A DNA stretch of 64,000 nucleotides from Eledone cirrhosa (lineage: Eukaryota): positions 8,071 through 72,070 of the forward strand of contig CAXHJY010001592.1 of assembly GCA_964016885.1 (NCBI GenBank). The letters run 5' to 3'. Below the pieces are notes generated by a model, which saw nothing but the letters and a program-made list of their open reading frames with translations, had not been told where the DNA came from and searched no databases. How positions within the stretch are numbered: the stretch's first letter is position 1; the number at the start of each line of letters is the position of its first letter. Positions 6,137 through 50,414 of this stretch are shown here, in pieces. The position numbers and the translations under genes were made by a program.

Positions 6137-7584
6137 TATGTTAGGTGTATAACAACAGGCAGCGCGCTGTTATATATATATATATATATACACACACAGG
6201 ATGCCCCCCCCCCCCCCCAAAAAAAAAATGTATACACACTTCAACAGCATTCAAATAAATATGTATATATTTTTGGGGGACAGACAACCTGTGCATATAT
6301 ATATATGTGTGTGTGTGTGTGTGTGTAGTGCCCATTTTGTGGGTGGAGTATAATGAATGCTATGTAGGTGAGGCTTACACGTGTAGTAGAATTTGAATTG
6401 CAGTGAGAAGTATGGATTGTTCTTAATAGGAGCTAGAGTGATTGAGTTGGCAAATAAGAAAACTACCAATCTGAAAGAGAAGATATTTTAATGCTGGTCT
6501 TTAAAAAATCACAAAGGCTGGAAGTGCTATAAATTCTCAAAGATCTACCGACTAATACAGAACTTTCCAATACACGGAAGCTACAAAAAGATTCAACAAT
6601 AGAAACATTTAACTAATTTTTCTTATTTTTGCCCCAAGTGCTTCTTCTCTCTCTCTCGTTTTTTTTTCTTAATTATAAGACAGATATTTTCTCAACCAGC
6701 CATAGCTTACCAGCTCTACACAGATGTTTAAATTGATTAAGTGGATAAAAAGATAAAAGCAGATTTATATGTGAGATATGCGTTGGTGTGCAACGACCAC
6801 ATAAAATGTAGGTGTGGTTGCAAAAAATACTGAATAGAAATTTAGAAAAAGTGTTTGTAAAAATAAATTCAATACAATGAGAGCGTGTTTGAGTTAGTCG
6901 ATATCAGTCATGCGTGGGTCAGACAAAAGTTTGTAAGAAATATTCAAAGTCATTCTAGAATGAATGGATAAATACCAATACGCCTATGCTTTCTAAATTT
7001 ATGTTTATATATCAATGTGCTTGATAATCATATATATTTATATATATTGTATGAGGCAACGAAGTTTCACTTTAAAATGTCTTTATTCCATATCGAACAT
7101 CGCATATGTTTCACAAATGATCGGATAGAGATCTTTATCGATATGATAGAGCTGACTTCAGTATGGGTTTGCTTATCAGACGTATAGATTTCAGTCAAGA
7201 TATTTTATATACTCATATGTATATATATATATATATATATATATATATATATATATATATATATATATATATATATATATATATATATATGTATATAAAC
7301 AAATAACGAAACGAAATTAAATTTCGTTTCGCTTCTAACTCACTTTTGTATGACTGACACTTAAACAATTAAGTTAAAGTGTACATCCACATATGTATAC
7401 GGAAGTATTAGTATGCATATAAATACACACATGTATACATATGTACATGTACTGAGTTTTTCACTAGACACTTTACAGTGAGTGTCAGCTAGTCTGTATG
7501 TAACCACACAGATGGACCGGGTTTTAGAGTCATACGAGTTTTCAAGGAAAAACATTTCCTCTATTCTCCAGAGGGCCAGACAGG

Positions 7585-7628
7585 AATATTGGACTAGTTT
7601 CGATGTATTACATCTCATCAGCAATATT
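7585..7628 (-). ncRNA. Minimal hammerhead ribozyme, family 1
   Basis: Reverse complement of the 8419-8463 motif with a 1-nt deletion in stem-loop II. Confidence 0.8.
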
Positions 7629-8052
7629 TACCCATCTTCCGGCTTCTCTGGAGAATTGTAAAAGCACATATCGTTATATGCTTTTTCTATGAAAATTAGT
7701 AGTGGGTAGACCAATTTGCATAGAACGTGAGTTATTGTACGCACCGGTTCAGCGGAAACGATAAAAACAAATAACGAAACGAAATTAAATTTCGTTTCGC
7801 TTCTAACTCACTTTTGTATGACTGACGCTTAAACAATTAAGTTAAAGTGTACATCTACATATGTATACGGAAGTATTAGTATGCATATAAATACACACAT
7901 GTATACATATGTACATGTACTGAGTTTTTCACTAGACACTTTACAGTGAGTGTCAGCTAGTCTGTATGTAACCACACAGATGGACCGGGTTTTAGAGTCA
8001 TACGAGTTTTCAAGGAAAAACATTTCCTCTATTCTCCAGAGGGCCAGACAGG

Positions 8053-8097
8053 AATATTGGACTAGTTTCGATGTTATTACATCTCATCAGCAATATT
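8053..8097 (-). ncRNA. Minimal hammerhead ribozyme, family 1
   Basis: Exact reverse complement of the 8419-8463 motif. Confidence 0.85.
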
Positions 8098-8418
8098 TAC
8101 CCATCTTCCGGCTTCTCTGGAGAATTGTAAAAGCACATATCGTTATATGCTTTTTCTATGAAAATTAGTAGTGGGTAGACCAATTTGCATAGAACGTGAG
8201 TTATTGTACGCACCGGTTCAGCGGAAACGATAAAAACAAATAACGAAACGAAATTAAATTTCGTTTCGCTTCTAACTCACTTTTGTATGACTGACGCTTA
8301 AACAATTAAGTTAAAGTCACGTTCTATGCAAATTGGTCTACCCACTACTAATTTTCATAGAAAAAGCATATAACGATATGTGCTTTTACAATTCTCCAGA
8401 GAAGCCGGAAGATGGGTA

Positions 8419-8463
8419 AATATTGCTGATGAGATGTAATAACATCGAAACTAGTCCAATATT
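8419..8463 (+). ncRNA. Minimal hammerhead ribozyme, family 1
   Basis: aatattg-CTGATGA-GATGT aata ACATC-GAAA-CTAG-TC-caatatt: full catalytic core, 7-bp stem I, palindromic CTAG in place of stem III, GUC cleavage triplet. Confidence 0.9.
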
Positions 8464-8890
8464 CCTGTCTGGCCCTCTGGAGAATAGAGGAAATGTGTTT
8501 CCTTGAAAACTCGTATGACTCTAAAACCCGGTCCGTCTGTGTGGTTACATACAGACTAGCTGTAAACACTCACTGTAAAGTGTCTAGTGAAAAACTCAGT
8601 ACATGTACATATGTATACATGTGTGTATTTATATGCATACTAATACTTCCGTATACATATGTAGATGTACACTTTAACTTAATTGTTTAAGCGTCAGTCA
8701 TACAAAAGTGAGTTAGAAGCGAAACGAAATTTAATTTCGTTTCGTTATTTGTTTTTATCGTTTCCGCTGAACCGGTGCGTACAATAACTCACGTTCTATG
8801 CAAATTGGTCTACCCACTACTAATTTTCATAGAAAAAGCATATAACGATATGTGCTTTTACAATTCTCCAGAGAAGCCGGAAGATGGGTA

Positions 8891-47474: not shown

Positions 47475-47699
47475 GTATGTACACGTACATACATATATGT
47501 ATACAAACGTACAGTAGTATGTATATATATATACATACATGCACACATATATATGTACGTATGGATTCACCGAACATTTATTATAATGCTCGGTGTGTTT
47601 GTAAACAATCATCCCGTATTAAGCCGTAGTGTCCAGCAACCATCGTTGCTCGTTTGTTCAACACTGACAAAGGAACGCTGTACAAGCTTATTAGCTATC
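47475..47699 (-). mobile_element. Truncated family 2 retrozyme-like unit with damaged HHR
   Basis: Matches 28217-28454; tagtttc is deleted from the core; (TA)n on both sides. Confidence 0.75.
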
Positions 47700-48887
47700 T
47701 ATAATATATGCAATTATATATATACATATATATATATATATATATATAGTACGCAGTTTGATTAAGGAAGTTATTTGAGATAAACATAAAATATAAACAT
47801 TTACGTCACAAATATCCTTGAGATATTAATTAATTGAAGTTAATTACTTACGTATAAGTCAAGTAACTAGTATTGAGTTCTTCAGGCCAGTGTTGTCGCA
47901 ACTCATGTATGCACTAAATACACTATATATACACTATATATACACTATATACACAATATGTGCGCTATACAATCATGACATATGATACTGTTGGAGGAAC
48001 AAGCAAAGGTGATACATGGCACCAGAGCAACGTGAAATAATGTGTCACCTGGTCTGGGGATCGAAACTAAGACCTAACGATTATGAGCCCCAAACCCTAA
48101 CTAGTAGATCACACACTTTTACTGATATTTCAATACTCTTCATGTTTTCGATAAATCAGTACTAAAAAACCCCATTTCCTAGGTAAAACAGAAATAGATA
48201 GATAAAGAGAGAGAAAGCTTGAGCGAGAGAGAGAGAGTGAGAGAAAGAGAGAGAGAGAGTGAGATAGAGTGTGTGTGTGTGTGTGAGAGAGAGAGAGAGA
48301 GAGAGAGTGAGAGAGAGTGAGATAGAGAGATAGATAGATAGAGAGAGAGAGAGAGAGAGAGAGAGAGAGAGAGAGAGAGAGAGAGAGAGAGAGAGAGAGA
48401 GTGAGTTTGTGTGGTATATTCAATGTTGCTTCAGTTTCTTTTTCTGTTTCCATTATCCCCTGTCCGCCGATGTCTCTTACATTATACACACACACACACA
48501 TATATATACATACACACGTACATTGTATGTATGGATGTATATATGTATATTACACACACACACACACACACACACACACACACACACACACACACACACA
48601 CACACACACACACACACATATATATATATATATATATATATATATATATATATATATATATAAACAATTAAGTTAAAGATGTACATCCATATATGTATAC
48701 TGAAATACTAGTATGTATATGAATACACACACGTATACATATGTAGATGTACCAAGTTTTTTCACTGGTCACTTTACTGTGAGTGGCCAGCTATTCTGTA
48801 TGTAAACACACAGACAAACCGGTTTTTAGAGTCATACTGGTTTTTGAGGAAACACCTTTCCTCTATTCTCCAGAAAGCCAGACAAGG

Positions 48888-48932
48888 AATATTGAACTAG
48901 TTTCGTTGTTGTTACAACTCATCAGCAATATT
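48888..48932 (-). ncRNA. Minimal hammerhead ribozyme, family 1b
   Basis: Reverse complement of 49700-49744 with one loop change. Confidence 0.8.
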
Positions 48933-49699
48933 TACCTATCTTCCGGCCTTTCTAGAGAATCGTAAAAGCACATATCGTTATATGCTTTTTCTATGAAAAT
49001 TAGTAGTGGGCAGACTAATTTGCATAGAGTGTGAGTAAGTACCGGTTCAACGGAGACGATAAAAACAAATAACGAAACGAAATTAAATTTCGTTTCGTTT
49101 GTAACTCACTTTTGTATGACTGACGCTTAAACAATTAAGTTAAAGATGTACATCCATATATGTATACTGAAATACTAGTATGTATATGAATACACACACG
49201 TATACATATGTAGATGTACCAAGTTTTTTCACTGGTCACTTTACTGTGAGTGGCCAGCTATTCTGTATGTAAACACAGACAAACTGGCTTTCTGGAGAAT
49301 AGAGGAAAGGTGTTTCCTCAAAAACCAGTATGACTCTAAAAACCGGTTTGTCTGTGTGTTTACATACAGAATAGCTGGCCACTCACAGTAAAGTGACCAG
49401 TGAAAAAACTTGGTACATCTACATATGTATACGTGTGTGTATTCATATACATACTAGTATTTCAGTATACATATATGGATGTACATCTTTAACTTAATTG
49501 TTTAAGCGTCAGTCATACAAAAGTGAGTTACAAACGAAACGAAATTTAATTTCGTTTCGTTATTTGTTTTTATCGTCTCCGTTGAACCGGTACTTACTCA
49601 CACTCTATGCAAATTAGTCTGCCCACTACTAATTTTCATAGAAAAAGCATATAACGATATGTGCTTTTACGATTCTCTAGAAAGGCCGGAAGATAGGTA

Positions 49700-49744
49700 A
49701 ATATTGCTGATGAGTTGTAGCAACAACGAAACTAGTTCAATATT
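49700..49744 (+). ncRNA. Minimal hammerhead ribozyme, family 1b
   Basis: aatattg-CTGATGA-GTTGT agca ACAAC-GAAA-CTAG-TT-caatatt. Confidence 0.85.
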
Positions 49745-50414
49745 CCTTGTCTGGCTTTCTGGAGAATAGAGGAAAGGTGTTTCCTCAAAAACCAGTATGA
49801 CTCTAAAAACCGGTTTGTCTGTGTGTTTACATACAGAATAGCTGGCCACTCACAGTAAAGTGACCAGTGAAAAAACTTGGTACATCTACATATGTATACG
49901 TGTGTGTATTCATATACATACTAGTATTTCAGTATACATATATGGATGTACATCTTTAACTTAATTGTTTAAGCGTCAGTCATACAAAAGTGAGTTACAA
50001 ACGAAACGAAATTTAATTTCGTTTCGTTATTTGTTTTTATATATATATATATATATATACATACATACACATATACATTATCTCATACATAGGCCACATA
50101 CAAACATAAACACTGTAGTGTCAAATCAAGGTAGTTTATCAAGTTCAGTGCTATTTGCATTAGATCTTATATATTAGTTTCGGATTTAGACACAAGGCCA
50201 GCAATTTGGGACGAAGTGGAAGTTGATTGAATTATAATATAATTGACATGAAAAACAAACACATTCAATTTACTAAATCTCACAATGTCATGAAAAACCA
50301 TTGACATTATATAAAAAATAATTGAGCAATATCTAATAAAAACAAAGAACACTATTAAAGGGAGCAACAAAAGAAGAAAAAGGAAATGAAGAGAAGAAAG
50401 AGAAAAATGTGTCA

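Follow-up and report, generated by a model that had tools for sequence, protein, structure and literature searches.

The 64,000-nt window analyzed here, a stretch of contig CAXHJY010001592.1 from the 3.0-Gb, AT-rich animal assembly of Eledone cirrhosa, carries seven insertions built from two inverted arms, among them Penelope-like elements (PLEs) and putative retrozymes made of hammerhead arrays. In each, one arm stops past a family-specific tail, at a fixed 3′ end termed X, and the opposite arm stops short of that tail, at a second fixed 3′ end termed Y. In loci sampled from the assembly, this pairing was nearly obligate: among 111 two-armed insertions from six families, 100 were X+Y, two were Y+Y, none was X+X, and nine had one off-site end. 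Independent choice of ends would predict like pairs in about half. An earlier sequence-only reading of the window had reported recurrent head-to-head palindromes with (TA)n-flanked 3′ ends. The inverted arms and their sense were confirmed, several boundaries and parsings proved wrong, and the main constraint, that the paired 3′ ends almost invariably use two distinct fixed sites, one tailed and one untailed, had been overlooked.

Seven Head-to-Head Insertions in the Window

Long inverted repeats were mapped by self-BLAST. All seven two-armed insertions (S, A, B/C, G, D, F, and E) are head-to-head, with minus-sense left arms and plus-sense right arms according to the orientation of open reading frames (ORFs) and hammerhead cores. 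Their parts are as follows (UTR, untranslated region; RT, reverse transcriptase):

1–698, starting ~540 bp before the window: S palindrome, centre at 1–207; right arm plus-sense, Y end at ~698
Upstream of the window start: S left arm, carrying a ~70-nt tail and the X end
639, plus strand: S hammerhead-like core, by motif reading
7293–8317, minus: left arm of putative retrozyme A, two 469-bp hammerhead units and a partial unit; X end at 7293
8314–9153, plus: right arm of putative retrozyme A; Y end at 9153, 74 nt upstream of X within the unit
21499–24661, minus: left arm of PLE B/C, 3′ part of the ORF and 3′ UTR; X end at 21499, ~65-nt tail
22441–22948: 508-bp insert nested in the B/C left arm, within an internal TA run
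24662–28137, plus: right arm of PLE B/C, GIY-YIG end of the ORF (to 25152) and 3′ UTR; Y end at ~28137
26222–27402: family G insertion nested in B/C; left arm 26222–26326 (X), right arm 26327–27402 (Y)
36796–40694, minus: left arm of PLE D, 5′-truncated ORF (38329–40693) with RT and C-terminal GIY-YIG; Y end
36881, in the minus arm: hammerhead-like core in the 3′ UTR of PLE D
40694–42032, plus: right arm of PLE D, 3′ UTR copy and ~165-nt tail; X end
44495–45083, minus: left arm of the PLE F 3′-end palindrome; X end, 33-nt tail
45081–45655, plus: right arm of the PLE F palindrome; Y end
48661–49277, minus: left arm of putative retrozyme E; Y end
49284–50040, plus: right arm of putative retrozyme E; X end, 6-nt insert at the central junction

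Inverted arms were confirmed at 7293–9153, 21499–28137, 36796–42032, 44495–45655, and 48661–50040, and the parsing changed at several places. The B/C region had been read as a palindrome at 22958–26147 ending in (TA)n and a separate pair at 21499–22420/27435–28138. In other copies, the short internal TA run leads straight into the sequence of 27423–28137 (37 links); since the inner TA runs are internal in other family members, both parts belong to one insertion. Both internal TA runs of the window copy took later inserts, at 22441–22948 and at 26222–27402, the latter a palindrome that had been missed. The left arm of this G insertion is barely more than an inverted 90-nt tail. The 508-bp insert has 69–82% matches at four further loci. 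Hammerhead-like cores occur twice in the 3′ UTR of each B/C arm (23573 and 21646 in the left, 25478 and 28055 in the right), and the arms are 1.2–2.6% diverged, microsatellites left aside. The stretch 1–207, credited earlier with similar geometry and an unreadable sense, is the centre of the larger S palindrome, whose arms show no substitution in 367 aligned bases. Sense had also been called unreadable at 44529–45652, which lies within the palindromic PLE 3′ end. Both ends of the A insertion had been placed in (TA)n; this holds for the X end, which adjoins (TA)n at 7220–7290, while the right flank has only 8 alternating bases. The central junction of A has a 4-nt overlap. The right arm of D is identical to its left arm over 1173 bases, and E is a subfamily ~87% like A.

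Pairing of Two Fixed 3′ Ends

Best-matching loci were taken from assembly searches (~900–1800 first-look candidates each, ~40 scored) and 136 stretches were fetched, so that the sample comprises young, well-matching copies and is not a census; S and G insertions were found incidentally. Each family has two fixed 3′ ends, and the tail between them measures ~33 nt in F, 65 in B, 70 in S, 74 in A, 90 in G, and 165 in D. X+Y pairs accounted for 34 of the 35 D insertions (the exception combines an off-site end with Y), 28/32 in A/E (the other four combine X with an off-site end), 9/11 in F (one Y+Y, one off-site; three of the nine have gaps separating the arms), 11 of the 13 scorable B/C insertions (one Y+Y, one off-site), 8/10 in S, and 10/10 in G. 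The non-coding hammerhead arrays thus follow the same rule as the PLEs. For three D insertions the left arm was X and the right end at first lay out of view; Y was predicted, and fetching the sequence confirmed it in all three.

Several loci were left out of these counts. Family H (from 28155 onward) was excluded because most of its apparent X+X cases were either tandem joints inside the array or cross-matches, at 69%, to internal units of A. The A count omits L095, where a 71-nt "arm" reflects self-complementarity within the unit, a second identical copy at L090, and the duplicates L091 and L100. Six B/C loci were unscored: C28b is nested, its seeming X+X pair being two insertions, and in L172, L173, L176, L155, and L163 an end is broken up or lies beyond the fetched stretch. 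A natural copy served as the F reference for final scoring. The aligned L215 protein is at most a candidate member of F.

Sequence features at the end sites were also compared. Bases resembling TA lie at or beside the sites, and the short motifs after X resemble those after Y in both D and B. Short terminal motifs were re-copied at 17/36 Y ends of D versus 2/50 X ends (P = 2e-6); such re-copying was rare in A (2/30 and 1/38). D Y ends with one to several re-copies include that at 36796 in the window and those at L109, L118, L194, and L203, and resemble slippage during priming.

Target, Orientation, and the Possibility of Artefact

A TA run of at least 8 nt lay within 40 nt of 85/86 PLE-D termini and 65/68 retrozyme-A termini, compared with 16% when positions in those loci were picked at random; B ends also lie in (TA)n. 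Orientation, for which the sequence-only reading had named randomness as the refuting outcome, was non-random: neighbouring opposite-strand junctions were head-to-head rather than otherwise in ratios of 35:0 for D (53 loci), 8:1 for F (21 loci), and 26:1 for A (38 loci). A TA-flanked 408-bp control repeat, chosen as the putative end of a long interspersed nuclear element but with no ORF found in it, was head-to-head within 1.5 kb in 0/29 loci, against 6/29 for D in the same span.

The palindromes could in principle be fold-back reads, assembly errors, or inverted duplications made in DNA after insertion. The perfectly identical arms of D in the window would suit such an origin, as would L186, where a nested insert is mirrored in both arms. 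The flanks are not mirrored, a tail present in one arm is absent from the other, and the other arms are 0.25–2.6% apart; together with the head-to-head counts of the control repeat, these observations largely refute it. Raw Illumina reads from two samples of another study were searched as well, and six opposite-strand joints inside D were recovered, four of them at the same coordinates in both samples; the read-joint output gives no polarity. These joints weigh against the read artefacts of the earlier concern for D as a family, the window's own central junctions not having been recovered from reads; no contig among those listed bridged the 40694 junction. A 353-nt contig over the right flank of D, seen in two samples, included only ~18 element bases, under the 31-base bridging rule, and was not counted; the sample behind it may be the source of the assembly. 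An artefactual or post-insertion origin is considered very improbable.

Flanking sequences were compared in 60 insertions. Interrupted direct repeats of at least 14 nt were common to both flanks in 16, versus 5.6% of 160 mismatched pairs, and inverted matches between flanks occurred in 6. The shared repeats fit target duplications or, possibly, compound microsatellites; no empty allele was found, the insertion flanks having no second copy in the assembly.

Relationship between the Two Arms

In D, the youngest of the PLE families, the arms differ at 37 of 35,823 sites (0.10%), while per-locus means between insertions range from 0.1 to 1.0%. At minor variants present in at least two loci, the arms agreed 59 times and disagreed twice; of the locus-private variants, 46 were in both arms and 27 in one. 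The two arms of a D insertion share one source haplotype. In A, divergence was 0.76% between opposite arms, 0.71% between units within an arm, and 1.30% between loci. No hyperedited (ADAR-type) copy was found among the 53 D loci.

The 5′ ends were compared in 34 D insertions. The arm reaching further 5′ was the Y arm in 18, the X arm in 14, and neither in 2 (Spearman 0.11), and the offset between 5′ ends (median 1.3 kb) was no smaller than in permuted pairs (P = 0.38), so the 5′ stop points are largely independent. In 15 of the 34 the arms are non-nested, each reaching sequence that the other lacks, and no two of the 34 junctions are alike; each inversion was therefore built anew, and both arms need a full template. 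Junctions without inserts overlapped by at least 2 nt in 22/27 cases (16% expected) and by at least 4 nt in 11/27 (1.6% expected). Inserts were present at 8/35 junctions, and 3 of the 4 inserts of at least 13 nt copy adjoining arm sequence. From the microhomology and the templated inserts we infer joining of the polymerase-theta type, an established end-joining pathway, at D junctions. Overlaps were taken from BLAST alignments, and the junction argument rests on D because three A overlaps (22, 51, and 86) are inflated by self-complementary sequence.

Two alternatives bear on these data. In PMC3846280, self-priming of cDNA or antisense RNA is proposed; such fold-back would give a hairpin, which an endonuclease could resolve asymmetrically to leave the tail on one side ("EN-mediated resolution," PMC8557442). 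Identical arms and shared private variants are accounted for by this scheme, as are the excess of near-equal 5′ ends and the near-symmetric F palindrome of the window. The permutation-like offsets, often with only 1–3 nt of overlap, speak against it, and the non-nested insertions would require extra trimming on either arm. We regard fold-back as unlikely. The sequence-only reading had offered two-ended priming or fold-back; the former, with central joining, is the better supported, while simple fold-back cannot give the 15 non-nested D insertions. Two-ended priming is favored because the arms are non-nested, their 5′ ends are independent, and the junctions are microhomologous.

Alternatively, each protomer could prime on its own RNA from the same source locus, with an asymmetric complex setting the X and Y sides. 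Strand displacement would then be unnecessary, and both the independent 5′ ends and the monomer variants that fall out of register in several retrozyme arrays would fit. Against this, several source haplotypes coexist, yet the arms agree at nearly all recurrent variants, and neither X+Y pairing nor the equal 5′ ends in a subset follow simply from the scheme. Priming on two RNAs is judged improbable.

A Proposed Mechanism and Points against It

The explanation toward which we lean, with some confidence, is that a pair of PLE proteins nicks both (TA)n strands, each 3′-OH primes cDNA at one of two sites on a single RNA, and the products are joined by microhomology. The GIY-YIG domains would nick both strands to give a staggered (TA)n break. 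On the same RNA, cDNA synthesis would begin at Y for one protomer and at X for the second, the trailing protomer would displace the first cDNA, and the two cDNA 3′ ends would be joined by microhomology-mediated end joining; where only a single cDNA was made, a single-arm insert would be expected. Under two-ended priming, left-antisense and right-sense arms would therefore arise directly. The hammerhead arrays would borrow the protein of some PLE. The sequence-only reading had tied the arrays to PLE machinery, and a common insertion footprint supports the link; no PLE that could partner the array turned up.

Several observations weigh against this mechanism. Its steps were not observed directly; the dimer, the single RNA, and the strand displacement are deduced. 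A haplotype common to both arms could also arise if one source locus supplied two RNAs, or if gene conversion acted later. The near-equal 5′ ends (within 30 nt in 4/34 D insertions versus 0.65 expected, P = 0.002) are as compatible with fold-back as with run-off at a single RNA end. Monomer variants of A are in register between the arms at L068 and out of register at L075, L077, L087, and the window copy. The two Y+Y cases, L186 and L219, and the nine off-site ends break the pairing rule. The first D probe contained the tail and so could not sample Y+Y; a second, tail-free probe gave 10 X+Y and one off-site case (n = 11). Apart from low-complexity stretches, the DNA of retrozyme A has no significant match to that of D, B, or F. 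For the in vitro system of PMC11167929, start sites reportedly did not differ between the strands, and pairing was not assayed there on single molecules.

Two of the exceptional loci have features of their own. At L186 (2204–9312), the same family G sequence is nested in both arms of the Y+Y palindrome, and B probes do not match the palindrome's centre; the source RNA was possibly chimeric, or a duplication may have followed later. At L090, one retrozyme insertion with an off-site left end occurs twice (1213–2525 and 8513–9825), 7.3 kb apart, which suggests a local segmental duplication.

In a more general form, PLE integration would be an obligately asymmetric, two-ended target-primed reverse transcription (TPRT), in which a dimer sits on two repeated motifs around the tail of one RNA with one protomer per break end; we put this at even chances. 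If it is correct, one reaction yields inverted arms, one-sided tails, and single-arm copies alike, and retrozymes ride along as its direct passengers, with paired start sites as their only requirement.

Assignment of the Elements

Because Rfam and Pfam did not recognize the elements, the class labels rest on motif reading: the Rfam scan gave no match at the gathering threshold, hammerhead cores included, Pfam gave none on the PLE proteins of D or of the B fragment, and a PDB sequence search returned none. D has an 832-codon open frame in five loci. Its protein contains YRDD at 346 and VIY…YVG at ~690–706, and has 100 homologues at E ≤ 1e-20; RWR (30), DKT (115), CxCX5C (670), CxxC (768), and CxH (796) are conserved in the alignment. 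In the window ORF of D, Asn-rich stretches lie between RT and endonuclease and recall inserts described in PMC3846280. The B protein, read like that of F from frameshifted copies, has RWK, DKT, CxCX5C, CxxC, and CxH, plus GIY-YIG at its C terminus. Translations of F at L209 and L222 show GxKF, DKG, a CX2-5CxxC linker, and CCHH. D, B, and F fit the layout of endonuclease-containing (EN+) PLEs, with a single ORF encoding RT and C-terminal GIY-YIG and a partial tandem/inverted structure with a tail. By motifs and (TA)n insertion, D and B are assigned as Hydra-type PLEs; F is assigned by motifs as a Neptune/Nematis-type PLE, with Neptune and Nematis not separated.

Hammerhead-like cores can be made out by eye in both D and B, variant bases being present in D and the first B copy, and their folds are no better than those of shuffles (z −0.8 to −1.5). 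A and E consist of non-coding tandem 469-bp units, each with a type I hammerhead core whose stem III is a minimal palindrome; A arrays reach ~14 units per arm and their longest frame is 84 codons. Both are putative non-LTR retrozymes. Overall, the elements are ordinary members of known groups.

Other Repeats in the Window

Directly after retrozyme A, at 9160–9545, a remnant ends in a hammerhead-like core (9495) that is 80% like that of D, followed by (TA)20. Family H occurs at 28155–28650 and 47465–47699 as a tandem repeat ~69% like retrozyme A over 150 bases; at other loci it is often inverted, with a ~53-nt tail. A 224-codon frame at 3007–3681 is PLE-like by eye, has no Pfam match, and aligns poorly to D. 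The 408-bp control repeat lies at 19303–19711, 19977–20449, 21019–21410, and 56198–56537, flanked by (ATGT)n or (TA)n and often in direct tandem. ORF fragments with Pfam zf-RVT matches at 10443–11222 and 18231–19340 are probably 3′ parts of non-LTR retrotransposons. A ~190-bp TA-flanked element with a long nested hairpin, at 44015–44205, 57236–57420, and 59653–59845, is very common in the fetched loci. Another ~190-bp repeat, resembling a short interspersed nuclear element, occurs in both orientations at 2869–3010, 5231–5415, 5939–6137, 14240–14438, 15662–16112, 31061–31257, 34259–34451, and 52712–53080. Long degenerate TA arrays with regular phase shifts occupy 699–1067, 2359–2866, and 60249–64000.

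Comparison with Known Systems

In L1 twin priming, a single RNA is the template for cDNAs primed by both nicked strands, and these are united at microhomology; the internal position where the second primer anneals varies, the arms have no sequence in common, and the 3′ end is not duplicated. D arms, in contrast, share up to 3 kb, and each of them ends at a 3′ site; with both cDNAs starting from fixed 3′ positions, the 3′ region would be duplicated here.

The literature already describes head-to-head arms, tails confined to one side, targeting of (TA)n, and a link between PLEs and retrozymes. Head-to-head is given as the most frequent PLE arrangement, with an optional tail on one inverted pseudo-long terminal repeat (pLTR) (PMC3846280), and EN+ PLE insertions with an inverted pLTR and optional tail are also described in PMC8557442 and PMC2377424. 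Those accounts treat tail and inversion as "optional" or "often" present, give tails of 30–40 nt, and explain them by self-priming or endonuclease resolution, whereas in this genome the pairing is near-obligate (100/111), tails measure 33–165 nt, and the arms are often non-nested. Passages of PMC2377424, PMC13282606, and PMC9977147 add nothing further on pairing. Near-obligate pairing, non-nested arms, and an inverted, tailed retrozyme footprint were not found in the literature searched, which excluded supplements and most subscription papers. A known layout is sharpened here into a quantitative rule.

D and B resemble the Hydra clade in their C-terminal GIY-YIG, RWK/RWR, DKT, CxCX5C linker, CxxC, CxH, and (TA)n targets (PMC8557442). 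The D unit, at 4.2 kb, is longer than the "generally <3 kb" given there for Hydra, and at the second position of its hammerhead core the usual U is replaced by C. Metazoan non-LTR retrozymes and A/E are alike in their non-coding tandem units with a type I hammerhead in each, the 469-bp unit exceeding the 170–400 nt quoted for metazoan retrozymes. PLEs have been proposed as the mobilizers (PMC7229834) and as the origin (bioRxiv 10.64898/2026.07.22.740005) of retrozymes, with arguments from common ribozymes, co-occurrence, and phylogeny; word searches of both texts turned up no account of insertion ends or of arms in inverted orientation. The same footprint on hammerhead arrays provides insertion-level evidence on the machinery that moves animal retrozymes.

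The closest biochemical counterpart is Poseidon PAc, whose protein cuts and extends both strands in vitro, uses two adjacent RNA start sites, and is predicted to form a dimer (PMC11167929). As in this genome, two adjacent internal start sites define a tail and the target is AT-rich; no primer-RNA homology is reported there, whereas here the end sites contain or adjoin TA-like bases. That study does not address inverted insertions or the pairing of sites on one target. The origin of PLE tandem/inverted structures has been called undefined (PMC8557442), and the later integration steps were left open by the in vitro work. Near-obligate pairing in both Hydra-type and Neptune/Nematis-type PLEs supplies a single-molecule prediction for that existing assay.

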